From assembly GCA_041178345.1 (NCBI GenBank), contig JBEGVQ010000093.1:14496-78495 (forward strand): 64,000 bases of DNA, read 5' to 3'. The position numbers and the translations under genes are program-made. Below are positions 12,082 to 44,461 of the stretch, piece by piece. How positions within the stretch are numbered: the stretch's first letter is position 1; the number at the start of each line of letters is the position of its first letter. Below the pieces are notes generated by a model. It was not told the origin of the DNA and did no database searches. It saw only the letters and a program-made list of their open reading frames with translations. The DNA comes from Acidobacteriota bacterium. GTDB taxonomy: Bacteria; Acidobacteriota; Vicinamibacteria; Vicinamibacterales; UBA2999.

Positions 12082-12100
12082 CCCAGGAGAAAGTGGCGCC

Positions 12101-25224: not shown

Positions 25225-26244
25225 TTATCGCGGGTGTGAAAAGGAGGCGGCGTTCGGGATCAACTGGAAGAACACCTCTTCGGGCGTGTTCCCGTGCCAG
25301 TGGCCGGCGAGCCTGGCGTAGCCGACCAGCGCCAGGAAGATCGCCGCCACCCCGATGGCGATCCGCGGCGCGGTGACCCGGCGACGGGTCCCGAGCGTCC
25401 GCATCTCCAGGGCGTCCTTCACCGGGCACGCGGTCACGCAGGTCAGGCAGCCGTTGCACTCGGGCGTGCGCACGGTCATCAGCCGGTCCACGGGAATCAA
25501 TGAGGGGCACGCCTTGGCGCACTTGCCGCAATCGATGCACGAGATCGGATCGCGCGTGATGCGCGTCGGGCTCAGCATCGAGACCAGGCCCATCAGCGCG
25601 CCGTACGGGCACAGGTACCGGCACCAGAAGTTCTTGGTCACCACCGACAACAGCACCAGGACGAGGCAGACCTGGATGGTCAGCCGGCCGGCGTCGCGGA
25701 AGAAATCGAGCATCTTCACGTCGGCGACCAGCCCGTAGGGGCTGGAGAGAAACGCGCTCAACGCCGGGACGGGCATGCTCACGACGGCATAGGCGAACAG
25801 GGCCAGGAGGATGTACTTCAGGCTGCGCAGCGGCAGGTCGGCCCAGCGCGGGAGCGTGAAGTTGCGGCCGAACATCTCGCGCCCGCCTTGCCAGAGCCAC
25901 TCGGAGATCGTGCCGATCGGGCACAGCCAACTGCAGAACGCCTTGCGGAACACCAGCGACATGGCCAGGAACGCCAGCAGCAGGAACAAGCCGGCGGGAT
26001 GCACCTCGGGAACGCTGGCGGTCAGCAGGAGGTACTTCAGGTTCATCAGGGAGGCCACCGGCAGCCAGCCCTCAACCCCGGGCGGGCGCGGGACGTAGAC
26101 GGTGGCCCCGGCTGTTTCGTAGAAACGAACCCAGAGGTAGAACCGCACGCCGATCCAGAGATTCAGGAGCAGGAACGCCACCTGCACGCTGTGCCGGACT
26201 AGCAGCGTCTGTTCAAGCGGGCGTTTGTCGTAGGCTCGGGCCAT
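25225..26244 (-). CDS. NapH/NosH/MauN-family membrane 4Fe-4S ferredoxin-type protein
   Basis: CSWLCPIGT and FWCRYLCPYGA membrane motifs, plus CIDCGKCAKACP and CNGCLTCVTACP clusters. Confidence 0.82.
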   Translation of the reverse strand: MARAYDKRPLEQTLLVRHSVQVAFLLLNLWIGVRFYLWVRFYETAGATVYVPRPPGVEGWLPVASLMNLKYLLLTASVPEVHPAGLFLLLAFLAMSLVFRKAFCSWLCPIGTISEWLWQGGREMFGRNFTLPRWADLPLRSLKYILLALFAYAVVSMPVPALSAFLSSPYGLVADVKMLDFFRDAGRLTIQVCLVLVLLSVVTKNFWCRYLCPYGALMGLVSMLSPTRITRDPISCIDCGKCAKACPSLIPVDRLMTVRTPECNGCLTCVTACPVKDALEMRTLGTRRRVTAPRIAIGVAAIFLALVGYARLAGHWHGNTPEEVFFQLIPNAASFSHPR

Positions 26245-26291: not shown

Positions 26292-26307
26292 TATGACACC
26301 GGTCATA
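26292..26307. promoter_or_regulatory. TATGAC-N4-GTCATA palindrome (Crp/Fnr-type operator candidate), copy 1
   Basis: TATGACACCGGTCATA, centred about 55 nt upstream of the NosH-like start codon. Confidence 0.55.
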
Positions 26308-31104: not shown

Positions 31105-31120
31105 TATGACGGCGGTCATA
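31105..31120. promoter_or_regulatory. TATGAC-N4-GTCATA palindrome, copy 2
   Basis: TATGACGGCGGTCATA followed by CCC. Lies in the divergent region between the amidohydrolase and fasciclin genes, centred about 57 nt before the fasciclin ATG. Confidence 0.55.
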
Positions 31121-31169: not shown

Positions 31170-31664
31170 ATGAGGCAGCCACTGTCACGTACGAGTGCCG
31201 CTCTCGGAACCGCGGCCCTGATCGCCCTGCTGGTTCTCGTCCCCGTCCGCGCGCAAGGCACCAAGGACATCGTCGATGTCGCGGTCGCCGCCGGCTCGTT
31301 CAAGACGCTGGTCGCCGCCGTCCAGGCGGCCAACCTGGTGGACGTGCTCAAGCGGCCGGGACCGCTCACCGTGCTCGCCCCGACCGACGAGGCGTTCGCG
31401 AAGATCCCCAAGGCCGACCTTGATGCGCTGATGAAGGACAAGGTCAAACTGGCGGCCGTGCTGCAGTACCACGTGCTCGTCGGCAACGTCAGCGCCGCCG
31501 ACCTGAAAATGATGAAGGACTTCGGCACGGCGCAGGGCCAGCGCGTCCAGATTTCGAGCGTCGGCGCGGCACTCAAGATCAACCACGCCACCATCATCAA
31601 GGCCGACATCTCCGCCAGTAATGGCGTGATTCACGTCATCGACTCGGTGCTGCTGCCTAAGTAG
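31170..31664 (+). CDS. fasciclin (FAS1) domain protein, secreted
   Basis: ..DIVDVAVAAGSFKTLVAAVQAANLVDVL..LTVLAPTDEAFAK..NGVIHVIDSVLLP. Confidence 0.92.
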   Translation: MRQPLSRTSAALGTAALIALLVLVPVRAQGTKDIVDVAVAAGSFKTLVAAVQAANLVDVLKRPGPLTVLAPTDEAFAKIPKADLDALMKDKVKLAAVLQYHVLVGNVSAADLKMMKDFGTAQGQRVQISSVGAALKINHATIIKADISASNGVIHVIDSVLLPK

Positions 31665-31695: not shown

Positions 31696-31711
31696 TATGA
31701 CGCCGGTCATA
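31696..31711. promoter_or_regulatory. TATGAC-N4-GTCATA palindrome, copy 3 (nos operon promoter region)
   Basis: TATGACGCCGGTCATA followed by CCC; 18 of 20 identical to copy 2 with flanks. Centred about 50 nt before ATG 31754. Confidence 0.6.
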
Positions 31712-31753: not shown

Positions 31754-33706
31754 ATGGGCATTCGCACGGCGTTGCCGGATCTCGCGCACTGGAAGGCCCA
31801 GGTCAAGTGCCAGGCCGGATGTCCCGTGGCCACCGACGCCGGCCGCTATGTCCAGCTGATCGCCGACGGCCGGCCTGAAGAAGCCTTCCTGGTGGCGCGC
31901 GCGCCCAACCCGTTTGCCTCTGTGTGCGGCCGCGTCTGCGCCGCTCCGTGCGAAGACGCGTGCCGCCGCGGCGTGATCGACGCGCCGGTGTCCATTCGCG
32001 CCCTCAAGCGGCACGTCACCGAGCAGTTCGGCGTCGAGTCGATCCGGCCCGACACCCAGGCGCAACTGCTCACCACCGATACCCACGAGGGCAACCGTTA
32101 CACCGGCCACTTGCCGCTGCCGTTCTACCGGTCGGCCGAGGCCGTTGCGGCCGGCACGGCCCCTCGTTCGGGCCCGCGCCGCCGCATCGCGGTGATTGGC
32201 GCCGGGCCGGCGGGCATGGCGGCCGCGCACGACCTGGCGCTGCTCAATTACGACGTGACGGTGTTCGAGGCCGCCGCCGAGCCGGGTGGCATGATGCGGT
32301 TCGGCATTCCCGAATACCGGCTGCCCCGCACGCTGCTGCGCGCCGAGATCGACCGCATCGTCTCGCTCGGCGTGGACCTGCGGCTGAACACGCCGCTCTC
32401 GGCCGAGTTCGGCGTCGCCCAGCTGCGCGCGCAGGGCTTCGAGGCCGTGTTCCTGTCGGTGGGCGTGTCGCGTGGCCGCGACCTGCAGGCGCCAGGTGTT
32501 GAACTCGATGGCGTCATCAAGGCGGTGGACTACCTGCTCAACGTCAACCGCGGCTACCGCCTGGATCTTGGCCGCAAGGTGGTGGTCATCGGCGGCGGCT
32601 TCGTCGCCTTCGATGCGGCCCGCACCGCCCTGCGCGCCGGCCGCGACGAAGCGGCGCCCGCCGATCACGCCGAAACCGATGCGCGCGTGAAGGAAGCGCT
32701 GGATTCGGCGCGCGCCGCCATCCGCGGTGGCGCCACCGAAGTCACGGTGGTGTCACTCGAAGACTTCTCGGAGATGCCGGTGCTGCGCACCACGCAGGGC
32801 CACGAGGAGTTCGAGGAAGCCAAGCGCGAGGGCGTGCGGTTCATTACCCGCCGCGGCCCCAAGGAATTCAAGGGGACGTCTCACCTCGAGACCATTGCCC
32901 TGCGCGCCGTCACCTCGGTGTTCGACGCCAATGGCCGATTCGCCCCGCAGTTCGTGGATGAAGACATTCTCGATCTCGAGGCCGACACCTGCATTCTCGC
33001 GATCGGGCAGAACGCCGACCTGTCGTTCCTCACTGACGCCGACGGCGTGGCCCTGACGCCCGGCGGCACGATCAAGATCGATCCGCTCACGCTGGCCACA
33101 TCGGCACCCGGCCTCTACGCCGGTGGCGATGTCGCCTTCGGCCCCCGCAACCTGATCGAGGCGGTCGCCAACGGCAAGCGCGCCGCGCGCTCGATCCACG
33201 AATTCCTGGCGGGCCAGGAGGCCCGCATCGAAACGCACCTCGAGGTTGAAGCGCTCGTCACGTCGCGTTACCGGATGGTAGCGGGCTTCGAGCGCTTCGA
33301 CCGCGAGGCGCCTCCCACGCTCGACGTCGGGCGCCGCACCGGCATCACCGAGGTCGAAACCGGCTACGACGCCGCGGCCGCGCGCACGCAGGCGGCGCGG
33401 TGCCTGGTGTGCCACGTGCAGACCATCTACGACCCGGAACAGTGCGTGCTGTGCAACCGCTGTGTCGATATCTGTCCGGAGTACTGCCTGGCGTTCGTGC
33501 CGATCGACGCGCTCGACCTGCCAGCCGCGGAACGGGCCGCCGTCGAAGAGCGGGCGCAAGCCGGCGGCTTTCCGCTCGCCGCGTTGATCAAGGACGACGA
33601 CCGCTGCATCCGTTGCGGCCTGTGCGCCATCCGGTGCCCGACCGAGGCCATGACGATGGAGCGCTTCACCATCACCGAACGCTGGAACGGGAGTACGGCG
33701 TCATGA
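31754..33706 (+). CDS. GltD-like NAD(P)H-dependent FAD/FeS oxidoreductase with a C-terminal 2x[4Fe-4S] ferredoxin domain
   Basis: N-terminal Cys cluster (CQAGCP..CGRVCAAPCEDAC), dinucleotide folds IAVIGAGPAGMAAA and VVVIGGGFVAFDAA, then CVLCNRCVDICP and CIRCGLCAIRCP. Its stop overlaps the next start (ATGA). Confidence 0.85.
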   Translation: MGIRTALPDLAHWKAQVKCQAGCPVATDAGRYVQLIADGRPEEAFLVARAPNPFASVCGRVCAAPCEDACRRGVIDAPVSIRALKRHVTEQFGVESIRPDTQAQLLTTDTHEGNRYTGHLPLPFYRSAEAVAAGTAPRSGPRRRIAVIGAGPAGMAAAHDLALLNYDVTVFEAAAEPGGMMRFGIPEYRLPRTLLRAEIDRIVSLGVDLRLNTPLSAEFGVAQLRAQGFEAVFLSVGVSRGRDLQAPGVELDGVIKAVDYLLNVNRGYRLDLGRKVVVIGGGFVAFDAARTALRAGRDEAAPADHAETDARVKEALDSARAAIRGGATEVTVVSLEDFSEMPVLRTTQGHEEFEEAKREGVRFITRRGPKEFKGTSHLETIALRAVTSVFDANGRFAPQFVDEDILDLEADTCILAIGQNADLSFLTDADGVALTPGGTIKIDPLTLATSAPGLYAGGDVAFGPRNLIEAVANGKRAARSIHEFLAGQEARIETHLEVEALVTSRYRMVAGFERFDREAPPTLDVGRRTGITEVETGYDAAAARTQAARCLVCHVQTIYDPEQCVLCNRCVDICPEYCLAFVPIDALDLPAAERAAVEERAQAGGFPLAALIKDDDRCIRCGLCAIRCPTEAMTMERFTITERWNGSTAS

Positions 33707-34218
33707 GCGATGACAAGAAACCAACCGATCGACGCGACTTTCTGCTCAAGCTAGGCGCCGGCGCGGGCGTGGCCGCCATCACCGTCCAGGCCGGGGCGTC
33801 GCTGCGCTCGCTCGTGCCGAACGTGTCGTACGACGCGCCGACCACCGTGAAGCTCGGTCCACCGTCCGACTTCCCCGATGGCCTCAAGTTCCTCCCGGAC
33901 GAACGCGTGCTCGTGTTCCGCGAAGGCAACACGTTCCACGCTATTTCGGCCGTCTGCACGCACCTCGGATGCACCGTCCGGGCGGAGGCGTTGGCTTCCC
34001 CCCAATCCGTCGACGCCGGCGGTGCCTCCATCCGCCTGACCCATCGCTTCCTCTGTCCGTGTCACGGCTCTGAATACAAGGGCGACGGCACCAACGTGTC
34101 CGGCCCCGCGCCGAAGCCGCTGGCCTGGTACCGCCTGCTGCTCGCGCCCGACGATGGGCAACTGGTGATTGACCTCGCGGACGAAGTGGGCCGCGACTTC
34201 CGCCTGACGGTGGGGTGA
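33703..34218 (+). CDS. Rieske [2Fe-2S] protein with a Tat signal
   Basis: DRRDFLLKLGAGAG Tat motif. CTHLGCTV..CPCHGSEY with an insertion between the boxes. Confidence 0.9.
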   Translation: MSDDKKPTDRRDFLLKLGAGAGVAAITVQAGASLRSLVPNVSYDAPTTVKLGPPSDFPDGLKFLPDERVLVFREGNTFHAISAVCTHLGCTVRAEALASPQSVDAGGASIRLTHRFLCPCHGSEYKGDGTNVSGPAPKPLAWYRLLLAPDDGQLVIDLADEVGRDFRLTVG

Positions 34219-35567
34219 CTGTGATGCGCCTGCCCTCCTTGACCCGCACCAAGCCCGAGGCTCCCAACGTGCATGCGGAGCCGCTGTGGAGTTTGCGCCC
34301 CCAGTCGGACCGTGAAGCCGGCGATGCGGTGGTGTCGAACTTCATGCTGCACTGGTTCCCCGCCAAGATCAGCAAGGCGTCGATGGCGTGGAACTACTCG
34401 TTCTGGCTCGGCACCATTTCCGGGGCGCTCTTCTTCCTGACGATTCTGTCGGGCCTGCCGCTGCTGTTTCTCTACGTGCCGTCGGTGGAGCGCGCCTACC
34501 AGTCGGTCAAGGACATCGAGTTCGTGATCACGTTCGGTTCGTGGATTCGCGCGGTGCACCGCATCTCGGCGCACCTGATGGTGATCGTCGTCGCCTTGCA
34601 CCTGGTCCGCGTGTTCCTGACCGGCGCCTACAAGAACGGCGTCGGCCGCGGGCAGCAGCGCGAAATCAACTGGGTGATCGGCGTCGTGATGTTCCTCACC
34701 ACGCTGTTCCTCTCGTTCACCGGTTACCTGCTGCCCTGGGACCAACTGGCCTTCTGGGCGGTTACGGTCGGCACCAACATCGCCTCCTCCATTCCCGCGA
34801 TTGGCCCGGCCGTCCGCGAACTGATGATCGGCGGCCGCAACATCGACCAGGCGACGCTGATCCGCTTCTACGTGTTGCACGTCGTCTTCCTGCCCGGCCT
34901 GCTGGCGGTGCTGTTCGCGTATCACATGTGGCGCGTGCGCAAGGACGGCGGCCTGGCCCGCGCCGACCACGAGACCGTGCTGGAAGAGCTGCGCACCACC
35001 GAGGTGGTGCCGACCAAGACCTACACCTTGCTGGGCGTCGCCCGCGGCACGGCGCCGACGGTGACGGCGCGGACGCTCGAGGCGGCCAACACCACCGTCA
35101 ACGCCGTGCCGGACCTGACGCGCCGCGCGCTGATTGCCGTCCTCGGCACCATTGCCGTCGTCAGCATCATGTCGGTGTTCATCGCCTCGCCGCTCGAGGA
35201 GCCGGCCAACGCGCTGATCACGCCCAACCCGGCGAAGGCGCCGTGGTACTTCCTGTGGCTCCAGGAAATCGTCACCGACACCACCATTCGGATCGGTTCG
35301 TTCACGCTGAACGGGGCGTTCGTGGGCGGCGTGATCCTGCCCGGGCTGCTGGTCGGACTCATGACCTTCTGGCCGTGGCTCGATCGTTCGTCCCATCTGG
35401 CGGCCGGCGTCTGGCTGCCGCGCGACCGCCGCCGGCAGAACATCGTGTTCCTGCTGATCGTGCTGTTCGTGCTGGTGCTGACGTTCGTCGGCATGGTCCT
35501 GCGCGGGCCGTATTGGTACTTCTACTGGCCGTGGGAGGCCTGGCCCGAGATTCCCGGAAGGATCTGA
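34215..35567 (+). CDS. cytochrome b subunit (long form, 450 aa)
   Basis: GTGA overlap with the Rieske stop. Typical b-type helices with His pairs; APWYFLWLQE motif. Confidence 0.9.
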   Translation: MTVMRLPSLTRTKPEAPNVHAEPLWSLRPQSDREAGDAVVSNFMLHWFPAKISKASMAWNYSFWLGTISGALFFLTILSGLPLLFLYVPSVERAYQSVKDIEFVITFGSWIRAVHRISAHLMVIVVALHLVRVFLTGAYKNGVGRGQQREINWVIGVVMFLTTLFLSFTGYLLPWDQLAFWAVTVGTNIASSIPAIGPAVRELMIGGRNIDQATLIRFYVLHVVFLPGLLAVLFAYHMWRVRKDGGLARADHETVLEELRTTEVVPTKTYTLLGVARGTAPTVTARTLEAANTTVNAVPDLTRRALIAVLGTIAVVSIMSVFIASPLEEPANALITPNPAKAPWYFLWLQEIVTDTTIRIGSFTLNGAFVGGVILPGLLVGLMTFWPWLDRSSHLAAGVWLPRDRRRQNIVFLLIVLFVLVLTFVGMVLRGPYWYFYWPWEAWPEIPGRI

Positions 35568-35568
35568 G

Positions 35569-36792
35569 ATGGAGAACCGCACCTCATCTCCGTATCCGCG
35601 GATCGACCGGTTGGTGCTGGCGCTCGTCGGCGTCACGCTGGTAATCGGCACCGCGCTGTTCATGTGGAGCGACCGCGCCCACGACTGGCGCTACTACCAG
35701 GCCGAGTTCCGGCGGATGGTGGCCGAGAAGTTTGGGGATGACAAGGCGGCGCTTCTCCCGTCGGGCGTGCGGCAGGTCTGGGCGGCCGAGCTGGCGCGCG
35801 CCGATCGCTGCATCACCTGCCACGAGGCGATCGCCTACAAGGGCTTCGAGGAGGCCGAGCATCCCTACCGCACGCATCCGCTCGAACCCCTGCAGCTTCA
35901 CCCGGTCGAAGCTTACGGCTGCACCTCGTGCCACGGCGGCCAGGGCTGGGCCATCGACACGGCGGCGGCGCACGGCGAGGTCGCGCACTGGGAGGAGCCG
36001 CTGCTGAGCCGGACCTTGGGCGAGGAATACACGCTCGCCGGCAACAAGAACGCGTTGATGCAGATGAACTGCAACACCTGCCACCGCTACGACCGCGAGA
36101 CCAAGGGCGCCGAGGCCATCAACCTGGCCAAGCGGCTGATCAACGACAAGGGCTGCCGGGCCTGTCACGTGATCAACGGGTTCGGCGGCACGATTGGCCC
36201 CGACCTCACGACCGTCGGCGAGAAGGCGCCCGAACAGTACGACATGAGCCGGTTGTCGGGCCAGCGCACCGCGTTTGCGTGGCACATGGCGCACTTCAAG
36301 GACCCGCGCGCGCTCAGCGAGGGCACCGTCATGCCGAACTTCAACTTCAGCACCGAACAGGCGCAGGCGCTGTCGATGCTGATGCTGTCGTGGCGGCGGC
36401 ACGAGGTGCCGGCGCGGTTTGTCTCGGGCGCGCCCCGCACGGACCCCCGCAGCGCCGAGGAGCTGAAGGCCGAGGCGGACATGCGGACCGGCCCTGGCGG
36501 GTGGTTCGTGCAGACCGGTTGTTTCGTGTGCCACTCGATCTCGGCGCTCGGGGTCAGGAGCCCGGCGCAGATCGGGCCCGACCTGTCGAATGCCGTCGAG
36601 GACGTGCAAAGCCGGTTCGGCGTGACGATCGACGCGTTCATCGCCAACCCCACCGGCACGATGAGCGTGGTGCTGTCGCGCCAGATCATCCTGACACCCG
36701 AGCAGAAGGAAGTGGCGATCCAGAAGTTGCGCGAGGCGTTTGCGGAGTACCAGCGCCAGCGTGAAACGGCCGCGGCCGCGATTTCCAAATAG
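35569..36792 (+). CDS. membrane-anchored pentaheme c-type cytochrome
   Basis: N-terminal TM helix. CITCH, CTSCH, CNTCH, CRACH, CFVCH. Starts 1 nt after the cyt b stop. Confidence 0.85.
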   Translation: MENRTSSPYPRIDRLVLALVGVTLVIGTALFMWSDRAHDWRYYQAEFRRMVAEKFGDDKAALLPSGVRQVWAAELARADRCITCHEAIAYKGFEEAEHPYRTHPLEPLQLHPVEAYGCTSCHGGQGWAIDTAAAHGEVAHWEEPLLSRTLGEEYTLAGNKNALMQMNCNTCHRYDRETKGAEAINLAKRLINDKGCRACHVINGFGGTIGPDLTTVGEKAPEQYDMSRLSGQRTAFAWHMAHFKDPRALSEGTVMPNFNFSTEQAQALSMLMLSWRRHEVPARFVSGAPRTDPRSAEELKAEADMRTGPGGWFVQTGCFVCHSISALGVRSPAQIGPDLSNAVEDVQSRFGVTIDAFIANPTGTMSVVLSRQIILTPEQKEVAIQKLREAFAEYQRQRETAAAAISK

Positions 36793-36807: not shown

Positions 36808-38661
36808 ATGGACCGAACGAATCGTGTGGCGTGGTCGAGGGCATCCGCCCTGTTGGTGCTGGCGCTCGTCGCCAGCCAGTGCACGCCGAGCCAGCCCGCC
36901 TCGCGGCGCGGCGGCAGCGGCGTGCAGTCGGACGCCGCCGTGGCGGCGCTCAAGACCTACGTGGCCCCGGGTGACCTCGACGAGTACTACATGTTCTCGT
37001 CGGGCGGGCATTCCGGCCAGATTTACGTCTACGGATTGCCCTCGATGCGGCACCTCTCGACCATCCCCGTCTACACCCCCTACCCGGCGACCGGCTACGG
37101 TTTCGATGATGACAGCAAGAAGATGCTGGGCGACCTGACGTGGGGTGACGCGCATCACCCGGCGCTGTCGGAAACCAAGGGCGACTACGACGGCCGCTGG
37201 CTGTTCATCAACGAGATGAACGGGCGCATTGCCCGCATCGATCTGCGCGACTTCAAGACCAAGCAGATCCTGGGGCCGGTGCCGAACCTGCATGGCAACC
37301 ACGCCTCGTCGTTCGTCACCCCGAACACCGAGTACGCGATGATGGCCACCCGCTTCTCCCGGCCCGTGCCGAACCGGGTCGTCGGCATCGACAAGTACGC
37401 GACCGAGTACAAGGGCATCATCGCCGGCGTCAAGATCGAACCGGCCTCGGGCGAGATGTCGCTGGCGTGGCAGATCCTGATGCCGCCGTTCGACTACGAC
37501 CTGGGCGACGCCGGCAAGCTGGCGTCCGACGGCTGGATGTTCTTCACCTCGTACAACACCGAGCGGGCCACCGGCAAGCTCGAGGTCACCGCCTCGCAAC
37601 GCGACCAGGACTACATTGCCGCGGTTGACTGGCGCGCCGCGGAGAAGGCGATCGCCGAGGGCAAGTTCGACACCATCGGCGGCGTCAAGGTGATCGACCC
37701 CAAGAAGGTGCCCGGCATCGTCTACCTGCTGCCCTGCGGCAAGTCGCCGCACGGCGTCGACGTCTCGCCCGACGGCAAGTGGATCATCGGCTCGGGCAAG
37801 CTCCAGGGCGTCACCACCGCGTTCAACTTCGAGAAGATCCAGACCGCGATTCGCAACAAGGACTTCATCGGCGAAGAAGACGGCATCCCGGTGCTGAAGT
37901 ACGAGTCGATCAAGGACGCCGAGGTCGCGGTCGGCCTGGGCCCGCTGCACACGCAGTTCGGCCCCGATGGCTGGGCCTACACCTCGCTGTTCGTCGACAG
38001 CGCGATCGCGAAATGGAAGCTCGGCACGTGGGAAGTCGTCGACAAGGCGCCGATGTCGTACTCGATCGGCCACCTGGCCGCGGCCGAAGGCGACACCGTC
38101 AGCCCTGACGGCAACTACCTGGTCGGCCTCAACAAGCTGTCGCACGGCCGCCACCTGAGCGTCGGGCCGTCGCAGCCCGAGTCGTCACAGCTGCTCGACA
38201 TCACCGAAGAGAAGATGAAGCTGCTCTACGACGCCTTCACCGAACCCGAGCCGCACTACGCGCAGATCATCAAGGCCGACAAGATCAAGGCCATCGAGGT
38301 CTATCCGAAAGAGGAAAACAAGCACCCCATGGCGGTGTGGGATCTCAAGGACGCCGGGGTGACCCGCAATGGCAAGAACGTGCTGGTCAAGATGATCGCC
38401 GTGCGCTCGACGCTGACGCCGACCTCGTTCGAGGTGACCGCGGGCGACCAGGTCACGGTGGCCGTGACCAACATCGAGCAGACCACCGACGAACTGCACG
38501 GCTTCGGGCTGCTCGACTACAACATCAACCTGGTCATCGACCCGGGTGAAACCAAGACCGTCACCTTCACCGCGAAGAAGAGCGGCGTGTTCGCCTACTA
38601 CTGCACCAACTTCTGTTCGGCGCTTCACCAGGAGATGCAGGGCTACATGATCGTCAAGTGA
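36808..38661 (+). CDS. nosZ: nitrous oxide reductase, clade II (Sec-type) form
   Basis: GDAHHP CuZ region, beta-propeller body, C-terminal CuA site YYCTNFCSALHQEMQGYM. The N-terminal signal has no twin-arginine motif. nosB follows. Confidence 0.95.
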   Translation: MDRTNRVAWSRASALLVLALVASQCTPSQPASRRGGSGVQSDAAVAALKTYVAPGDLDEYYMFSSGGHSGQIYVYGLPSMRHLSTIPVYTPYPATGYGFDDDSKKMLGDLTWGDAHHPALSETKGDYDGRWLFINEMNGRIARIDLRDFKTKQILGPVPNLHGNHASSFVTPNTEYAMMATRFSRPVPNRVVGIDKYATEYKGIIAGVKIEPASGEMSLAWQILMPPFDYDLGDAGKLASDGWMFFTSYNTERATGKLEVTASQRDQDYIAAVDWRAAEKAIAEGKFDTIGGVKVIDPKKVPGIVYLLPCGKSPHGVDVSPDGKWIIGSGKLQGVTTAFNFEKIQTAIRNKDFIGEEDGIPVLKYESIKDAEVAVGLGPLHTQFGPDGWAYTSLFVDSAIAKWKLGTWEVVDKAPMSYSIGHLAAAEGDTVSPDGNYLVGLNKLSHGRHLSVGPSQPESSQLLDITEEKMKLLYDAFTEPEPHYAQIIKADKIKAIEVYPKEENKHPMAVWDLKDAGVTRNGKNVLVKMIAVRSTLTPTSFEVTAGDQVTVAVTNIEQTTDELHGFGLLDYNINLVIDPGETKTVTFTAKKSGVFAYYCTNFCSALHQEMQGYMIVK

Positions 38662-38703
38662 TTTGAGCGGTGACAGTTGAAGAGTTGACAGTTGGCAGTT
38701 TAG

Positions 38704-39363
38704 GTGGTCACGATGCAGGCGTTCCTCCAACGCGCGAATCGGTTCTTGGACATGCCGATCGGTCTTCCGGCGAGAATCATGCTCCTTGCCGCGACGGCTC
38801 TGATCGTGGCCACCTATTTCTTCCCCCTCTGGAACCTGACGATGTTCGCACCGCAGTATCCAGAGGGGCTTCGCCTCGACATCTACTCCTACACGCTGGT
38901 CGGCGGCAACAACGGCCAGGACGTGAAAGAGATCAACGTGCTCAACCACTACATCGGCATGCAGGACCTGGTGAACGAATCGTTCACCGAGTTCCAGTGG
39001 ATGCCGTTCGTGATCGGCGCGCTCGGCCTGCTGGTGCTGCGGGCCGCCGTCCACGGCACGGTCGTCGCGCTGGTCGACGTCACCATGCTGTTCGTCTACT
39101 TCGGCGCCTTCTCGCTGTGGTCGTTCGGCTACAAGCTGTATCGCTACGGCCACGACCTGTCGCCGGAAGCGGCGGTGCAGGTGCCGCCGTTCATGCCGCC
39201 GATGTTCGGCGGCGCGCAGATCGCCAACTTCGAGGTCTATTCCTATCCGCGGCCCGCGACCTACGCGATGGCCGGCGTGATCGCCCTGTTGCTGGCGGCG
39301 CTGTTCCTGACCTGGTGGCAACGGCCCACCGGCGAGCTCCCGGTCGCGGCGGATCGGGGATGA
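38704..39363 (+). CDS. nosB: NosB-like integral membrane protein of clade II nos clusters
   Basis: Polytopic membrane protein directly after nosZ and before nosD. The start may instead be ATG 38713. Confidence 0.7.
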   Translation: MVTMQAFLQRANRFLDMPIGLPARIMLLAATALIVATYFFPLWNLTMFAPQYPEGLRLDIYSYTLVGGNNGQDVKEINVLNHYIGMQDLVNESFTEFQWMPFVIGALGLLVLRAAVHGTVVALVDVTMLFVYFGAFSLWSFGYKLYRYGHDLSPEAAVQVPPFMPPMFGGAQIANFEVYSYPRPATYAMAGVIALLLAALFLTWWQRPTGELPVAADRG

Positions 39364-39367
39364 CGCC

Positions 39368-40747
39368 GTGACAGCCGTCGCCGTGATGCTGCTGTTGGGC
39401 CTGCTGCAGGTCACAGATGCTATGCCGCCAGGCGCCGGCGTCGAGGGGCGGCCGGCCGCGGCGCACGCCTCGCCCCTCCAGGCCCTGGTCGACCGCGCAC
39501 AACCCGGCGACCGCGTCGTGGTGCCGGCGGGCACGTACGACGGAGACCTGCTGATCGATCGCCCGATCACCCTGCGCGGCACGGGTCGTCCGACCCTGCG
39601 CGGGTCGGGCACCGGCAGCGTGGTCCGCGTGCGTGCCCCCGGCGTCATCATCGAGGGCTTCGACATCGACGGGCGCGGCCAGGGCGACCTGGGCCGCGAC
39701 ACCTCGGGCATTCACGTGGCCGCGCCGCGCGTCACGATCCGTGATTGCCGCATCCGTCAGGCCTTGTTCGGCATCTACCTGCGCGAGGCGGATGACGCGG
39801 TGGTCGAGACCACGACGGTGACCGGCATTCCCGGCCGCGATCCCGGCGAGAACGGCAGCGGCATCCACGTCTGGAACAGCCAGCGCTTCCGCCTGGCCGG
39901 CAACACCATCGCCGGCGCCCGCGACGGCTTCTACATCCAGTCGTCATCGCACGGCCTGGTGCGCGGCAACCGCGCCAGCGATCTCCGTTACGGCCTCCAC
40001 TACATGTTCTCGGACGACAATGTCTTCGAAGACAACGTGTTCGCGCGCGGCGCCGCCGGCGCGGCGCTGATGTACTCGAACCGCATGACGTTCCGGCGCA
40101 ACCAGTTCGTGCACAACCGCGGCTTTGCCTCGGTGGGCCTCCTGTTGAAGGCATGCGATGACGTGGTGGCCGAAGACAACCTGATCGCCGACAACGCGCG
40201 CGGGGTCTTTCTCGAAGGTTCGTATCGGAATCGGTTCCGTCGCAACCTGGTGGCGATGTCGGACATGGCGCTGGTGATCTACGACTCGAGCGGCGCCAAC
40301 CACTTCGCGGGCAACGCCTTCGTCGGCAACCTGACGCCGCTGTCGCTGTCGGGCAAGCGCACTGATACCGTCTTCGACGGCAACTACTGGTCCGACCACG
40401 GCGTGCCCGATCTCGATGGCGACGGCGTGAGCGACCGGCCGTACCGGCTGTCGAATGTCTTCGATCACCTGCGTGGCAACCTGACCGCCGCCGACCTGTT
40501 CTCGCGTAGTGTCGCGGCGTCGGCGTTGGGCGCGGCGGAACGGGCCTTTCCCATCCTCGACCCCATTCCGGTGATCGACGCGCATCCGCTGGTGCGCCCG
40601 CCGGTCCTCGACGCGGTGCCGATGCCGGCGTCGGTCGCTTCGTCGCAATCGGTCGCCAGCACCGCCCCGCCCCTGCTGCTCCTGCTGGTCGGCGGCGGCG
40701 TGCTTGCGGCAGGCGGGCGCTCCTGGGTGAAAGGCAGGCGATCGTGA
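39368..40747 (+). CDS. nosD: nitrous oxide reductase maturation protein NosD (parallel beta-helix)
   Basis: Repeated beta-helix units (..GIHVW..GNTI..GFYIQ..GNRA..YGLHYMFS..N.F..). Position in the nos operon. Confidence 0.9.
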   Translation: MTAVAVMLLLGLLQVTDAMPPGAGVEGRPAAAHASPLQALVDRAQPGDRVVVPAGTYDGDLLIDRPITLRGTGRPTLRGSGTGSVVRVRAPGVIIEGFDIDGRGQGDLGRDTSGIHVAAPRVTIRDCRIRQALFGIYLREADDAVVETTTVTGIPGRDPGENGSGIHVWNSQRFRLAGNTIAGARDGFYIQSSSHGLVRGNRASDLRYGLHYMFSDDNVFEDNVFARGAAGAALMYSNRMTFRRNQFVHNRGFASVGLLLKACDDVVAEDNLIADNARGVFLEGSYRNRFRRNLVAMSDMALVIYDSSGANHFAGNAFVGNLTPLSLSGKRTDTVFDGNYWSDHGVPDLDGDGVSDRPYRLSNVFDHLRGNLTAADLFSRSVAASALGAAERAFPILDPIPVIDAHPLVRPPVLDAVPMPASVASSQSVASTAPPLLLLLVGGGVLAAGGRSWVKGRRS

Positions 40748-41643
40748 TCGAATACCGCGCCTTCACGAAACGCTATGACGGCAGGACCGCGGTCGATGCC
40801 CTGACGCTGCTCGTGCCGCCCGGATCGGTCGTGGCATTGCTCGGCCCGAACGGATCCGGCAAGACCACGTCGATCAAGGCGGCGGCCGGCCTGATTCGGC
40901 CCGACGCCGGCGAGGTGATGCTGGGCCACGATCGCATCAGCGCCCTCGACCCGCGCGGACGCCGGTCGTGCTCGTTCCTGCCGCAGCGCGTGTCGTTTCC
41001 CGAGACGCTCACCGGCCGCGAGGTGGTCGAGTTCTACCGGCGCCTGCGCGAAGCGCCGGTTGGCGCCGCCGATCGCGTCTTGAAGTTCGCGTCGCTCAAC
41101 GGCGCCGGCGCGCGGGCCGTCGGCACCTACTCCGGCGGCATGGTGCAGCGGCTCGGGCTCGCGGTGGCCACCCTGGGCACGACGGAAGTGTTGTTGCTCG
41201 ACGAACCTACGGCCGCGCTCGATCCGGAAGGACTGAGCGCCTTCTACGAACTGGTCGAGACGCGCCGGAGATCTGGCGGCACGGTCTTCTTCAGCTCGCA
41301 CCAGCTTGGCGACATCGAACGCCTCGCCGACGCCGTGGCGGTGATGGTCGCCGGCAAGCTCGTGGCGCAGTTTACCGAACGCGACCTGGCGGCGCGGCTG
41401 GCCGACCGGGGCGTCATGCGCGTGCGGCTGGCGGCGCCCATTGCCGGGCTGCTCGAGCGCGTCAGCGAGCGCGCACCCGGGGCCAGGTGGGCCGGCGACG
41501 AGCTGACCGTGCCCGGCTCGGCCGCCATGCGGCCGCTGATCCTCGACCTGGTTCGCGAGGCCGGCGCCGAGATTCGCGGCCTCACGGCGGAAGAGGGCCG
41601 GCTCGATGAGTTCTACCGCGAGCTGATCGGAGTGCCGTCATGA
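40744..41643 (+). CDS. nosF: NosF ABC transporter ATP-binding protein
   Basis: GPNGSGKTT, YSGGMVQRLGLA, LLLDEPTAALD. Overlaps the nosD stop. Confidence 0.9.
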   Translation: MIEYRAFTKRYDGRTAVDALTLLVPPGSVVALLGPNGSGKTTSIKAAAGLIRPDAGEVMLGHDRISALDPRGRRSCSFLPQRVSFPETLTGREVVEFYRRLREAPVGAADRVLKFASLNGAGARAVGTYSGGMVQRLGLAVATLGTTEVLLLDEPTAALDPEGLSAFYELVETRRRSGGTVFFSSHQLGDIERLADAVAVMVAGKLVAQFTERDLAARLADRGVMRVRLAAPIAGLLERVSERAPGARWAGDELTVPGSAAMRPLILDLVREAGAEIRGLTAEEGRLDEFYRELIGVPS

Positions 41644-42047
41644 CGAAGTGGGTGCTGGCGGCGGCCCTGGTCATGGGCGGGTGTGCCGGCGGTCCGCCGG
41701 GACCGGCCGCCGTCGGACTGGGCGAAGACGCCTGCGCGGGCTGCCGCATGACGATCGTGTCGCGCGCGACGGCCGCGCAGATCGTCCGCGCCGGCGACGA
41801 GGCGGTGTTCTTCGACGACCTCGGGTGCCTGCGCGACTACCTGCGCCAGCGACCGCTGCCTGGCGACGCCGTGGTCTACGTCGCCGACCATCGCTCGGGC
41901 GGGTGGGTGAACGCGCGCGCGGCGCTGTTTACCAGGACCACTGCGTCCACGCCCATGGCGTCGGGCCTGCTCGCCCATGCCGACACGACCTCTCGAGATG
42001 CCGACCCGGCGGCGGCCGGCGGCAGCCAGGCGACGGTGATGCCATGA
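41640..42047 (+). CDS. nosL: NosL copper-chaperone lipoprotein
   Basis: Lipobox LVMGGC; DACAGCRM metal motif. Confidence 0.85.
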   Translation: MTKWVLAAALVMGGCAGGPPGPAAVGLGEDACAGCRMTIVSRATAAQIVRAGDEAVFFDDLGCLRDYLRQRPLPGDAVVYVADHRSGGWVNARAALFTRTTASTPMASGLLAHADTTSRDADPAAAGGSQATVMP

Positions 42048-42883
42048 CCTCGCTGCGATCGGTGCTCTGGCTCTGCGCGCGGTACGAACTGGTGCTGGCC
42101 GTGCGATCGCGCTGGCTGCAATTGTTCGCCGTGGTCTTCGCCGCCCTGGCGCTGGCCGTGTCGGGCGCCGGCTACATCCTTTCGGGCGGTCATGGCGTCC
42201 AGGACTTCTCCCGTACCGCCGTCTCGCTGATCCAGATCGTGCTGCTGTTGGTGCCTCTGGCGTCGCTGGTGTTTGGCGGGCTGGCCCTCACGCCGGAACG
42301 CGGCGCTGCGGAACTGCTGTACTCGCAACCCGTCTCTCGCGGCGCCATCCTGTTGGGGCGGATGCTCGGCGTGTGGCTCGCGCTGGCCGCCGCCGAGGCC
42401 ATCGGCTTCGGCATCGCCGGCGTGTTCATGCAGCACCAGGCCGGGCCGGACGGGCTGTGGCGCTACGGCGCGCTGGTGGTGACCGCGGTGGCCATCACCG
42501 GTGTCTTCCTAGCCATCGCCACCCTGCTGGCCAGCATCAACGCCGGCCGCCGCACGCGCGTGCTGGCCGCCGCCCTGGTGGTCTGGTTCGCTACGGTGGT
42601 GATGTTCGACGTCGCCGTGCTCGGCATTGCGTCGCTGCTGCGATCGGGCTCGGCGTCGCGCCTGCTGATCATCGCTACGCTGATTAATCCAGTGGACGCG
42701 GCCCGCACCGGTTCGCTGCTCGCCATCGAGGGCACGGCCGCGTTCGGCGCGGCATCACTGGCGCTGTTGCGCTTCACGGGTGGCGCCGGCATGGCGGCAG
42801 CGCTGGTGGCGCTGTCTTTGGTGGCCTGGCTGATCGCGCCGCTGGCGGCCGCCATGCGCGCGCTCTCGCGCGCCGACATCTGA
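42044..42883 (+). CDS. nosY: NosY ABC-2-type permease
   Basis: ATGA overlap with the nosL stop; six hydrophobic helices. The gene order here is D-F-L-Y. Confidence 0.85.
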   Translation: MTSLRSVLWLCARYELVLAVRSRWLQLFAVVFAALALAVSGAGYILSGGHGVQDFSRTAVSLIQIVLLLVPLASLVFGGLALTPERGAAELLYSQPVSRGAILLGRMLGVWLALAAAEAIGFGIAGVFMQHQAGPDGLWRYGALVVTAVAITGVFLAIATLLASINAGRRTRVLAAALVVWFATVVMFDVAVLGIASLLRSGSASRLLIIATLINPVDAARTGSLLAIEGTAAFGAASLALLRFTGGAGMAAALVALSLVAWLIAPLAAAMRALSRADI

Positions 42884-42963: not shown

Positions 42964-43674
42964 TCAAGACGCCGACGCCTCGTCCAGTGCGTGCCGATGG
43001 ATCACCACGAAGCCGTCCTTCTCCGTGTGCAGCACGTCTTCTTTGTGCCAGCGACTCATGATGCGAATCGTCGTTTCGATGGTGGTTCCGGTCAAATCCG
43101 CCAGCTCCTGCCGAGACAGCGGCATCGCCACGAACGTCCCGCCGCGCTCCGGGCGGCCGATCTGATCGCAGAGCTTCAGGAACAGGCGCGCGAAGCGGGC
43201 CTCGACCCGCGCGCCGGTCAGCTCCGCGAGACGGCGCGTCAGCTCCGCCAGGCGAATGGTCAGGCCCGATAACAGGCCGCGCACAATCTCCGGATCTTGT
43301 TCCAGCAGGCGAAAGAAAGCCGCCTGATCGATGCGCACGCACTGGGTGGACTCCAGCGCCAGCGCGGACGCCGGAAACGGCGCGCGCTCGTAGACCGCCA
43401 CGGCGCCGAGCGGATCGCCGTCACCGAAGATCTCGAGGATGATTTCCTTGCCGGCCGGCGTCGACTTGAACACCTTGACCCGCCCGGTGACGATGGCGAT
43501 GAAGACATCGCCGGCGTCGCCTTCGGAAAAGATCAGGTCGCCGCGGTCGTAGGACCGCAGGTGCGCCACCGCTGCGACCCGCGCGCGCGCGTCGGGCGCC
43601 AGGCGCCGGAACAGCGAGATACGGCGAAGCAGGTCGTCGTCCGGAGGGGTGGACACGAGGGGATGATACGCCAC
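42964..43674 (-). CDS. Crp/Fnr-family transcriptional regulator without an FNR Cys cluster (DNR/NnrR/HcpR-like)
   Basis: cNMP-binding-type beta-roll (..GDLIFSEGDAGDVFIAIVTGRVKV..), C-terminal HTH ..RQELADLTGTTIETTIRIMSRW... Confidence 0.9.
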   Translation of the reverse strand: MAYHPLVSTPPDDDLLRRISLFRRLAPDARARVAAVAHLRSYDRGDLIFSEGDAGDVFIAIVTGRVKVFKSTPAGKEIILEIFGDGDPLGAVAVYERAPFPASALALESTQCVRIDQAAFFRLLEQDPEIVRGLLSGLTIRLAELTRRLAELTGARVEARFARLFLKLCDQIGRPERGGTFVAMPLSRQELADLTGTTIETTIRIMSRWHKEDVLHTEKDGFVVIHRHALDEASAS

Positions 43675-43681
43675 GCTGCGG

Positions 43682-44212: not shown

Positions 44213-44286
44213 CCGGTGTCCTTCGCGGGCGGGTCCCCCAGGCGTTCGCGCCTGACCCGATGCTAGCCGACGGTCGGAACGGGTAA

Positions 44287-44302
44287 CATGATCGACGTCA
44301 TA
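44287..44302. promoter_or_regulatory. degenerate copy of the palindrome (CATGAT-N4-GTCATA), copy 4
   Basis: Right half perfect, left half with 2 mismatches. Same 3' flank (TCGG) as copy 1. About 80 nt upstream of the hemerythrin-Crp operon start. Confidence 0.4.
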
Positions 44303-44461
44303 TCGGCCCCGGGGGCCGTCCTTATGCCCTTCGACTGTTCTTATCGTGCGCGCCACGGAGCCAATGCGTGCCTGACCGCGTGCCCCACCACGGCCGAGGT
44401 CGGTGGCTTCCAGTTCGCGCGCGTTGAACAGGGCAGCGGCGCGCCACCGGCCGATTCCCGC

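Follow-up and report, generated by a model that had tools for sequence, protein, structure and literature searches.

The locus lies in a window of 64,000 nucleotides from the genome of a soil acidobacterium, and all coordinates below refer to that window. On the plus strand, positions 31754-36792 hold an operon for an NfnB/GltD-like FAD/NAD(H) protein, a TAT-type Rieske protein, a fused cytochrome b6/subunit IV, and an anchored pentahaem cytochrome c. Directly 3' of the pentahaem c gene is a clade II nosZ-B-D-F-L-Y cluster. The features are as follows.

25225-26244, minus strand: NapH/NosH-like membrane polyferredoxin gene; the third copy of the box (26293-26306) lies 49 nt upstream
31106-31119, plus strand: second copy of the box; a gene for a secreted fasciclin-domain protein (31170-31664) lies 3' of it
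31697-31710, no strand assigned: palindromic box ATGAC-GCCG-GTCAT, a candidate Crp/Fnr-type operator, 44 nt upstream of the flavoprotein start
31754-33706, plus strand: NfnB/GltD-like Fe-S flavoprotein P0001, 650 aa, cytoplasmic (Pfam, NCBIfam, and PDB matches)
33703-34218, plus strand: Rieske [2Fe-2S] protein P0002 with a TAT signal (Pfam/NCBIfam)
34215-35567, plus strand: cytochrome b P0003, 450 aa, b6 N-domain fused to a subunit IV/PetD-like C-domain (Pfam/NCBIfam)
35569-36792, plus strand: membrane-anchored pentahaem cytochrome c P0004 (five CxxCH motifs, one N-terminal hydrophobic segment)
36808-38661, plus strand: clade II, Sec-dependent NosZ P0005 (TIGR04246, 895 bits against a cut-off of 625)
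38704-39363, plus strand: NosB-like membrane protein, 219 aa, four hydrophobic segments
39368-40747, plus strand: nosD (Pfam NosD/Beta_helix)
40744-41643, plus strand: nosF (Pfam ABC_tran)
41640-42047, plus strand: nosL (Pfam NosL, weak)
42044-42883, plus strand: nosY (Pfam ABC2_membrane_2)
42964-43674, minus strand: Crp/Fnr-family regulator, convergent with nosY (cNMP_binding and HTH_Crp_2)
43682-44686, minus strand: hemerythrin-domain protein, directly upstream of the regulator (Pfam Hemerythrin, 2.8e-15)

The four open reading frames of the original prediction were all recovered on the plus strand where it had placed them, and so were their tight junctions: an ATGA overlap between the flavoprotein and Rieske genes (33703-33706), a GTGA overlap between the Rieske and cytochrome b genes (34215-34218), a 1-nt gap before the pentahaem c gene (35568), and a 15-nt gap, containing a GAGGAGG Shine-Dalgarno sequence, before nosZ at 36808. 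Cytochrome b has an alternative in-frame ATG start at 34224. A terminator search of the operon returned nothing above chance level. Pfam matches, junctions, and hydropathy agreed with the predicted accessory order nosD-F-L-Y, these four genes (39368-42883) being joined to one another by 4-nt overlaps. The second Rieske/cytochrome b/multihaem set expected in the window was found at 11638-14429.

The Sec-type NosZ, the nosB directly 3' of it, and the nosD/F/Y/L genes place the cluster in clade II, and no NosR-like gene lies between nosZ and nosY. For the NosB-like protein, the frame at 38704-39363 was chosen by its GC3 of 0.88 and its hydropathy. The overlapping open reading frame at 38670-39371 was rejected, having a GC3 of 0.41 and an Arg/Gly-rich nonsense translation. 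Pfam, searched with that wrong-frame ORF, gave no match for the gene in either frame.

The box upstream of the flavoprotein occurs as three perfect copies in the window, against 1.3 expected by chance (perfect or with one mismatch). At 53 of 83 related loci, a TGAC-N4-GTCA box with a variable spacer precedes the flavoprotein start by no more than 300 nt, mostly at -47 to -67. The genes near the other two copies are also retained, the fasciclin gene upstream in the closest relatives and the NapH/NosH-like gene near the operon in seven relatives. The Crp/Fnr regulator, in which an N-terminal Cys cluster is absent, is a candidate binder of the boxes; its homologues occur upstream or downstream of the operon in 26 of 85 nos-linked acidobacterial loci, and the hemerythrin-domain protein is possibly its O2/NO sensor partner. 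Together, the conserved box and the nearby Crp/Fnr gene mark the flavoprotein gene as the first of a putative regulated operon.

Properties of the four proteins

The first product had been described as GltD-like with a 2x[4Fe-4S] tail and without a transmembrane segment, and Pfam, NCBIfam, and hydropathy agreed. P0001 has an N-terminal two-cluster domain (Fer4_20, residues 17-92), an FAD fold and an NAD(H) fold (Pyr_redox_2, 144-474), and a C-terminal 2x[4Fe-4S] ferredoxin domain (558-636), and no hydrophobic segment was found in it by hydropathy. By both sequence and fold, its best PDB matches were NfnA of NfnABC (9n5u/9bov), StnC, NfnI, and NfnB. Invariant in the alignment were C19, C23, C58, C62, C66, E67, C70, C550, and C553, together with C564/567/570/574 and C618/621/624/628. 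The four Fe-S sites (six N-terminal cysteines with Glu67 and a C-terminal pair of CxxCxxCxxxCP motifs) do not vary between the nos and anammox types and would trace a path from FAD toward the membrane side. The C-terminal ferredoxin domain is poor in the AF2 monomer model (mean pLDDT of 63).

The motif after strand beta-2 of the dinucleotide fold is V-S-L-E-D, and S/C-L-E is found at this site in all 86 nos-linked and all 15 other acidobacterial homologues, whereas the Kuste4570 type and NfnA carry Y-R-R. By the general Rossmann-fold rule and the motifs of NADH-GOGAT, on which the assignment leans, the site looks moderately likely to be NADH type rather than NADPH type. The host genome encodes the same domain architecture in a soluble context as well, adjoining 2-oxoacid:ferredoxin oxidoreductase genes. 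We considered and rejected an NfnAB or glutamate synthase identity for P0001, since, although the fold and domains match, an NfnA/GltB partner gene is absent nearby and the neighbors, in the relatives as well, are the fasciclin and Rieske genes.

P0002 carries CTHLGC and CPCHGSEY, whose Ser and Tyr are of the high-potential type; the other Rieske protein in the window has CPCHNGFY. P0003 has seven hydrophobic segments and the N-terminal motif NFMLH46WFPAK. It contains no cysteine and therefore lacks haem cN, and W63 aligns with Cys35 of b6. A cytochrome b6f identity fails for this complex, given that b6 and subunit IV are fused, cysteines are missing, and cytochrome f is replaced by a pentahaem c. 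P0004, which keeps its position in all of the relatives examined, stands in for cytochrome f/c1 and likely serves as the wire to NosZ.

Conservation and relation to anammox complexes

Synteny of the GltD-like gene with the nos genes of relatives had been set beforehand as the refutation test of the original prediction. In our neighborhood survey, the gene was syntenic with the Rieske, cytochrome b, pentahaem c, and nosZ genes in every relative examined. The order flavoprotein-Rieske-cytochrome b-pentahaem c-NosZ-D-F-L was kept wherever the contig was long enough in three sets: 80 loci of species-level relatives (69-91% identity), 5 deeper acidobacterial lineages (52-59% identity), and 5 genomes from a second phylum (Anaeromyxobacter type). 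Given its recurrence in all 80 species-level relatives, as far as each contig reaches, the arrangement is far beyond chance. The same operon also occurs, it seems, in Anaeromyxobacter, which can be cultured and would allow functional tests.

In a 401-genome sample of the phylum, 18 of the 41 NosZ-bearing genomes had the module and 23 lacked the flavoprotein. The carriers were the genomes whose NosZ was at least 59% identical, with the exception of three at 60-61% that were without the module. More distant flavoprotein homologues (38-49% identity) stood beside or within 5 kb of a Rieske/cytochrome b/multihaem set in 15 of 15 cases, without nosZ, so that for acidobacterial loci at 38-59% identity the Rieske/cytochrome b linkage was 20/20, with nos genes missing from 15. 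Some of these nosZ-free loci carry a cbb3 oxidase or a molybdoenzyme instead, and in one clade the flavoprotein gene lies inside a Rieske-cytochrome b-cbb3 oxidase operon. The flavoprotein and cytochrome b trees recovered the same clades. Taken together, these results uphold the observations of the original prediction and only part of its interpretation: the synteny with nosZ stands, but the flavoprotein partners this Rieske/cytochrome b module family generally, including its cbb3 and molybdoenzyme clades, and not nosZ alone.

The parallel with anammox bacteria drawn in the original prediction turned out to be real homology. The best solved-structure matches of P0002 were the Kuenenia Rieske proteins 9rk3 and 9rk4 (Kustd1480 and Kuste4569). 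P0001 was 33-39% identical (E values of 1e-85 to 1e-112) to the flavoprotein of Kuste4569-type operons, that is, those with a Rieske protein sharing 80-85% identity with Kuste4569, which stand in for Kuenenia's own flavoprotein. For that flavoprotein, the anammox authors' match was the NfnABC entry that we also found for P0001 (PMC12954380). In their AF3 model, cytochrome b His43 and Arg247 and flavoprotein Arg511 frame an extra haem (PMC12954380). H46 and R242 of our cytochrome b align with His43 and Arg247 of the Kuste4571 orthologues, and R569 of P0001 aligns with Arg511 of the Kuste4570 orthologues. These residues of the modeled interface are conserved across phyla, and most anammox-type loci link the flavoprotein to Rieske/cytochrome b. 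Judged by sequence comparison, the module and the anammox Kuste4569-4573 complex are homologues.

H46 was invariant in 95 of 95 partnered cytochrome b sequences, and three unpartnered ones had the canonical W-x-x-ER N terminus in its place. Seven anammox-type loci that carry no flavoprotein gene nevertheless have the N-terminal His motif, which is therefore a trait of the clade and does not prove a partner. R242 sits in a motif that all b6 proteins share.

Possible electron paths

The explanation that we put first, tentatively, is a single respiratory complex dedicated to NosZ, in which quinol bifurcation would let N2O drive the reduction of NAD+. Menaquinol would be oxidized by a Rieske/cytochrome b6-type dimer, and one electron would pass from the high-potential Rieske cluster through the pentahaem cytochrome c to periplasmic NosZ. 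The NfnB-like flavoprotein would dock on the cytoplasmic face of the dimer. Its four Fe-S clusters would connect to the chain of low-potential b haems, probably by way of an additional haem b at the interface, bound by His46 from each cytochrome b copy. The drop from menaquinol (about -70 mV) to N2O (+1.36 V) would push each quinol's second electron uphill onto NAD+, a quinol-based electron bifurcation like that proposed for the anammox complexes. From the sequences, physical docking of the flavoprotein on the cytochrome b complex seems quite probable, and the direction from quinol to NAD+ would be a little short of an even call. The host genome carries a futalosine-pathway (menaquinone) marker. 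It also has complex I, including NuoD and NuoF, and NADH made by the complex could therefore re-enter the chain. The NADH-type site is equally compatible with NADH oxidation, and a heterotroph without an obvious need of quinol-derived NADH counts against bifurcation.

The docked complex might instead run in reverse, with NADH oxidized and electrons passed via the Fe-S chain and the n-side haems to the quinone-reduction side, whether as a non-pumping NADH entry built into a NosZ-specific bc complex or as a Q-cycle top-up. Such a flow would be downhill (-320 to about -70 mV) in a presumed heterotroph with plentiful NADH, and the Leu-Glu site, set against the Arg-Arg of NADPH-using relatives and the Kuste4570 type, suggests catabolic NADH. 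We nevertheless consider either variant rather unlikely. A non-pumping bypass wastes energy because the genome already has complex I, and once the b haems are reduced, quinol could no longer be oxidized at the Qo site. It has been argued that a high-potential Rieske protein with menaquinone lets the b-haem chain reach a very low potential (PMC12954380), and the Ser/Tyr Rieske with menaquinone found here is what would be expected if the chain must do so. The module also always goes with high-potential terminal enzymes (NosZ, cbb3, or a molybdoenzyme). Less likely again is a soluble flavoprotein that is coexpressed with nos but makes no contact with cytochrome b, for instance an NADH:ferredoxin-type oxidoreductase that provides reductant for the maturation or repair of Fe-S, haem, or copper centers during N2O respiration. 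This would fit the lack of a membrane segment in P0001, its paralogue of like architecture in a soluble context, and published nos-cluster diagrams in which upstream genes, perhaps this one among them, are labeled only "Fe-S protein" (PMC11096178). However, it sits poorly with the Rieske/cytochrome b linkage in all 20 acidobacterial loci at 38-59% identity, 15 of them without nos genes, and in most anammox-type loci, the codiversification of flavoprotein and cytochrome b, the gene's place inside a cbb3 oxidase operon, and the conserved interface residues.

NosZ requires a low-potential activating donor, and clade II is not known to have NosR. The module might play a NosR-like role, moving electrons of low potential from cytoplasmic NAD(H) through the b haems and across the membrane so as to keep CuZ of NosZ reduced and active, rather than to serve bulk respiration. 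The NosR of clade I is likewise a membrane protein with a flavin and 2x[4Fe-4S], and the nos operon begins with the flavoprotein gene. We nonetheless hold this role to be very improbable, given that the same flavoprotein/Rieske/cytochrome b unit occurs in operons of CuZ-free cbb3 oxidases and molybdoenzymes, that 23 of the 41 NosZ-bearing acidobacterial genomes do without the flavoprotein, and that a full Rieske/cytochrome b/pentahaem chain is a bulk electron path.

Comparison with known systems

Known clade II clusters share the Sec-type NosZ, the adjoining 3' nosB, the nosDFYL accessory genes, and quinol oxidation via Rieske/cytochrome b, but the accessory order here is D-F-L-Y. Hein and colleagues are said to have reported in 2017 that clade II nos of Wolinella succinogenes requires a Rieske/cytochrome bc complex. 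Unlike the present locus, Wolinella uses NosGH/C1/C2 and a housekeeping bc complex. Anaeromyxobacter-type clusters, whose diagrams show "Fe-S," Rieske, cy-b, and cy-c genes, have the same operon. Our literature search found only "iron-sulfur protein" labels for the upstream genes in drawings of nos clusters, none of which was named an NAD-binding flavoprotein or tied to anammox complexes.

P0001 shares the Fer4_20 domain and FAD/NAD(P) Rossmann folds of the NfnB/NfnABC NfnA/GltD family (PDB 4ylf, 5jca, 9n5u, 9bov, and 2vdc; about 30% identity, Foldseek E values of 1e-30 to 1e-38). It differs in its extra C-terminal 2x[4Fe-4S] domain, an insert of about 30 residues preceding strand beta-2 in the NAD fold, and L-E where the 2'-phosphate is otherwise bound by R-R. 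P0003, whose best matches are b6 (E value of 5e-39), resembles cytochrome b6f and Firmicute-type b6c in the helix D haem-ligand His spacing (counted by eye) and the subunit IV-like C-terminal domain. The haem cN cysteine and cytochrome f are absent here, however, and the N terminus differs, bearing the invariant His.

The closest parallels are the Kuenenia stuttgartiensis complexes Kuste4569-4574 and Kustd1480-1485, in which an NAD(P) oxidoreductase subunit accompanies Rieske/cytochrome b, as the account of Kartal et al. 2013 within PMC12954380 has it. In both systems, the genes for a multihaem c and a b6-type cytochrome b plus subunit IV share one operon with those for a Rieske protein and an NfnB-like flavoprotein bearing four Fe-S sites, and the Rieske is of high potential alongside menaquinone. 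The flavoprotein gene comes first here, whereas the Rieske gene does in the Kuste4569 type. Anammox-type loci keep TWCMGG for haem cN, where P0003 has W63 and no cysteine, and b6 and subunit IV are fused here. The cytochrome c carries five haems instead of six or eight, the HAO-like subunit is missing, and the dinucleotide site has L-E (NADH type) instead of the R-R of the Kuste4570 type. Unlike in anammox, the terminal partner is NosZ and the hosts are heterotrophic soil bacteria.

Gene content and candidate regulation of the nosZ operon

The source assembly of the window comprises 3.46 Mb in 210 contigs at 94% completeness, and the MAGs closest to it bear the labels Acidobacteriota, Vicinamibacterales, or Thermoanaerobaculia. 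The original prediction listed four open reading frames ahead of nosZ, and we found all of them as given there:

31754-33706: P0001, flavoprotein of 650 aa, in which a two-cluster Fer4_20 domain is followed by an FAD/NAD core (Pyr_redox_2) and, at the C terminus, by a 2x[4Fe-4S] domain
33703-34218: P0002, Rieske protein with a TAT signal
34215-35567: P0003, b6-type cytochrome b with a fused subunit IV-like domain
35569-36792: P0004, pentahaem cytochrome c with a single membrane anchor and five CxxCH motifs
from 36808: P0005, clade II NosZ, Sec-type (TIGR04246 match, 895 bits)

The predicted junctions were also borne out, with ATGA and GTGA overlaps, a 1-nt gap, and a 15-nt gap ahead of nosZ. 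Hydropathy analysis found no hydrophobic segment in P0001. The genes 3' of nosZ are nosB, nosD, nosF, nosL, and nosY, and domain matches, junctions, and hydropathy upheld the proposed nosD-F-L-Y order. The longest reading frame after nosZ (38670-39371) is a wrong frame, having a GC3 of 0.41 and an Arg/Gly-rich translation; nosB is the overlapping frame at 38704-39363 (GC3 0.88), which encodes a 219-aa NosB-like membrane protein.

The best sequence and fold matches of P0001 are NfnA of NfnABC (9n5u; 9bov, whose sequence is shared with 9bp5), StnC, NfnI, and NfnB. The AF2 monomer used has a mean pLDDT of 63, falling below 50 in the C-terminal ferredoxin domain, and was therefore usable for the core fold match only. 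An identity as glutamate synthase or Nfn was ruled out because the partner genes are absent. Residues 550 to 554 of P0001 (33401-33415), upstream of the ferredoxin motifs, hold an invariant RCLxC pair that here reads CLVCH. We dropped this as a haem c motif, because Asp or Asn stands in place of the His in the anammox type (the Rieske/cytochrome b complexes of the Kuenenia Kuste4569 and Kustd1480 type) and the protein is cytoplasmic.

Next, we examined candidate regulatory elements. The perfect palindrome ATGAC-N4-GTCAT occurs in three copies in the window, versus 1.3 perfect or near-perfect matches expected by chance, and a Crp/Fnr-family gene lies close to the operon:

26293-26306: palindrome copy, 49 nt upstream of a gene for a NapH/NosH-like polyferredoxin
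31106-31119: palindrome copy, before the upstream fasciclin gene
31697-31710: palindrome copy, 44 nt before the flavoprotein gene
42964-43674, minus strand: Crp/Fnr-family gene, just after nosY and convergent with it
42964-44686, minus strand: span of the Crp/Fnr gene together with the hemerythrin-domain gene that precedes it

Of 83 related loci, 53 have a TGAC-N4-GTCA box in the 300 nt ahead of the flavoprotein start, mostly at -47 to -67, and in these loci its half-sites are conserved and its spacer is variable. Homologues of the Crp/Fnr gene are found in 26 of 85 nos-linked acidobacterial loci, that is, those with nosZ downstream. The conserved box and the nearby Crp/Fnr gene point to a regulated promoter upstream of the flavoprotein gene, which places the flavoprotein within a putative nos regulon. 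A scan for terminator and promoter consensus sequences gave signals at chance level. Taken together, the three palindromes and the Crp/Fnr and hemerythrin genes look like a small N2O/anoxia regulon.

Conservation of the module in two phyla

A scan of one genome per species yielded 419 stretches encoding relatives, and we fetched the best 80 (69 to 91% identity). The order flavoprotein-Rieske-cytochrome b-pentahaem c-NosZ-NosD-F-L is kept in all of these best 80 of 419, as far as the contigs extend, so that the flavoprotein and its Rieske/cytochrome b/pentahaem c set head the nosZ operon in the relatives as had been proposed for the window. Among the matches listed for P0001, close relatives are 78 to 96% identical; distant ones were reached through surveys of genomes and a scan of metagenomes.

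In a phylum sample of 401 Acidobacteriota genomes, a P0001 homologue (E of 1e-60 or better) was found in 90 genomes and NosZ in 41. Both occur together in 18 genomes, and 17 of these have the flavoprotein gene and nosZ on one contig, the former about 3.2 kb upstream of the latter. These 18 genomes are those whose NosZ is at least 59% identical to P0005, except for three at 60 to 61% that have no flavoprotein. Such a flavoprotein is missing from 23 of the 41 NosZ-bearing genomes (NosZ identity, 39 to 61%). All 20 homologues fetched at 38 to 59% identity adjoin, or lie within 5 kb of, a Rieske/cytochrome b/multihaem c set, and nosZ is downstream only in the five at 52 to 59%. The flavoprotein and cytochrome b trees give the same clades, and in each tree the nos-linked sequences form a single clade (SH-aLRT support, 100%). 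The flavoprotein is therefore a heritable part of a Rieske/cytochrome b module family, one branch of which is the nos-linked form. Three genomes have a nos-linked flavoprotein gene that is split or contains a stop (G357:C2:1089619-1091534, G345:C51:8558-10525, and G043:C8:38637-39821, given as genome, contig, and positions), which could reflect decay or assembly error.

Other branches adjoin other enzymes. In locus L097 (1377-10500), the module is followed by a strongly matching molybdopterin oxidoreductase and a 4Fe-4S subunit, and in L100 (8556-17618) by a weaker molybdopterin oxidoreductase match. L098 (G103:C60, 7471-16772) has the module embedded in a cbb3 oxidase operon, Rieske-cytochrome b-cytochrome c-CcoN-CcoO-x-flavoprotein-CcoG-CcoI, and shares with L096, L104, and L105 the layout Rieske-cytochrome b-cytochrome c-gap-flavoprotein. 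A Crp/Fnr gene with 69 to 75% identity lies upstream in L100 and L101.

One of the best 80 loci is labelled Anaeromyxobacteraceae, and a flavoprotein with 69 to 73% identity is present in 9 of 151 genomes of the phylum to which that locus belongs. All five loci fetched from it (L188 to L192, from genomes G463, G537, G483, G488, and G422; GC, 69 to 76%) have the identical operon and the same sequence hallmarks; the TGAC-N4-GTCA box is absent from these five. Complete chromosomes of 5,029,329 and 5,277,990 bp carry two of these loci, and we take these chromosomes to be those of the cultured strains Anaeromyxobacter dehalogenans 2CP-1 and Anaeromyxobacter sp. Fw109-5. Because the Anaeromyxobacter-type module sequences nest within the acidobacterial nos clade, the tree suggests that the whole operon moved between phyla.

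Homology to the anammox complexes and predicted dinucleotide preference

Two Kuenenia Rieske/cytochrome b complexes carry a putative NAD(P) oxidoreductase, and their Rieske proteins have potentials of +303 and +335 mV alongside menaquinone-7 (PMC12954380). The original prediction had drawn a parallel to such complexes, and we found homology: the best solved-structure matches of P0002 are the two Kuenenia Rieske proteins, 9rk3 and 9rk4 (E of 5e-18, versus 2e-11 for b6f). A metagenome scan with a Kuste4569 fragment as the query gave 80 loci, the best of which have a Rieske protein 80 to 85% identical to Kuste4569 and the order Rieske-flavoprotein-b6-subunit IV-multihaem c. P0001 is 33 to 39% identical to the flavoprotein of these best loci (E of 1e-85 to 1e-112), and the family match reported for Kuste4570, the flavoprotein of the Kuste4569-type operon, is the same NfnABC/NfnB family (PMC12954380).

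[quoted passage not shown] In the anammox-type sequences, cytochrome b residue 43 (counted from Met) is the first His of NVWLHLHP and aligns with H46 of P0003, residue 247 is Arg and aligns with R242, and flavoprotein residue 511 is Arg and aligns with P0001 R569, within the first CxxCxRC cluster motif. All 95 cytochrome b sequences with a flavoprotein neighbor carry H46, and the three cytochrome b genes with no such neighbor have a canonical W-x-x-ER N terminus. One of these three belongs to the predicted second set in the window, which is indeed present (Rieske, 11638-12081; cytochrome b, 12101-13180; multihaem c, 13161-14429) with no flavoprotein attached; a 730-aa gene at 9414-11606, which the original prediction tied to an outer-membrane conduit, precedes it. 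Its Rieske motif is CPCHNGFY, with no potential-raising Ser, and that of P0002 is CPCHGSEY. A strict tie between the His motif and the flavoprotein was ruled out by seven anammox-type loci (L127, L146, L161, L170, L172, L176, and L186) that have the motif and, within the locus, no flavoprotein gene. The motif is therefore a clade trait and no proof of docking. In L127, the Rieske and cytochrome b genes flank precisely the site of the missing flavoprotein gene.

In NfnA and the Kuste4570 type, strand beta-2 of the NAD fold is followed by V-Y-R-R. P0001 and every one of the 86 nos-linked and 15 further acidobacterial homologues have V-S/C-L-E at this place, with an insert of about 30 residues ahead of it. 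As a general rule in Rossmann folds, an acidic residue at this point indicates NAD and arginines indicate NADP, and eukaryotic NADH-glutamate synthase presumably has L-E-L-L at the same position. On both grounds, we predict that the dinucleotide site of P0001 is of the NADH type.

Predicted role in N2O respiration

Gene content and conservation fit one complex that would join quinol oxidation, NosZ, and NAD(H). One electron of quinol oxidation would pass through the Rieske protein and the pentahaem cytochrome to NosZ, and within the same complex the cytoplasmic flavoprotein would join NAD(H) to the b-haem chain. Electrons might instead enter from NADH, oxidized by the flavoprotein and fed into the complex. 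The genome has a futalosine-pathway marker, a search of it for classical MenA found none, and it encodes NuoD and NuoF. The bifurcating direction, from quinol to NAD+, appears favored because a high-potential-type Rieske protein occurs in a menaquinone organism, because the module always accompanies high-potential terminal enzymes, and because complex I is present to reoxidize NADH.

Another reading makes the flavoprotein a soluble enzyme that is merely coexpressed with the nos genes. The genome encodes a paralogue of P0001 (L187, G000:C39, 566-5216; 29% identity, same domain order) that adjoins 2-oxoacid:ferredoxin oxidoreductase alpha and beta genes and probably represents a soluble enzyme of the NAD(P)H:ferredoxin type; domain architecture alone is therefore no proof of membrane docking. 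The shared clades of the flavoprotein and cytochrome b trees speak against the soluble reading. The complex could also have a NosR-like activating role.

Under the bifurcating direction, a tentative and rather doubtful extension is an "NAD loop" under N2O, in which each menaquinol would give up one electron to NosZ and one, uphill, to NAD+, and NADH would reenter via proton-pumping complex I. Electrons would then be recycled via complex I and not the Qi site, raising the H+/e- ratio above that of the Q cycle. If the loop is real, menaquinone bacteria would generally use it to exploit the large difference in potential to N2O, O2 (the cbb3-linked clade), and the substrates of molybdoenzymes. Yoon and colleagues in 2016 reportedly found higher growth yields for the clade II N2O respirer Anaeromyxobacter, and the loop, if true, could explain such yields on N2O.

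To our knowledge, NosZ is the only biological sink of N2O. Judged from gene content, the module feeds NosZ in about 44% of the sampled NosZ-bearing acidobacterial genomes, and their energy conservation from N2O would therefore hinge on the role of the flavoprotein. Among carriers of clade II nosZ in soil, Acidobacteriota, and Vicinamibacteria above all, are some of the most abundant (PMC13122619). In diagrams of nos clusters, upstream genes carry no labels beyond "Fe-S protein," Rieske, cy-b, and cy-c (PMC11096178, PMC13122619), and flavoprotein-bearing complexes have been treated as peculiar to Kuenenia (PMC12954380). In the full-text literature searched, which did not extend to Sanford et al. 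2012 and ten Brink et al. 2013, no nos-cluster gene was named as an NAD-binding flavoprotein or linked to the anammox complexes.

The nos-linked module is closely related to the anammox complexes and simpler than they are. We know of no pure culture of anammox bacteria and no means of manipulating them, so the quinol-to-NAD(P)H bifurcation proposed there is still untested. Because the same operon occurs in what we take to be cultured Anaeromyxobacter strains, the question of the flavoprotein becomes directly testable. Compared with the anammox type, b6 and subunit IV are fused here, and the cytochrome c is pentahaem. The anammox type keeps TWCMGG in cytochrome b, whereas P0003 is without any cysteine and has W63 at the position of the haem cN-binding Cys of b6.
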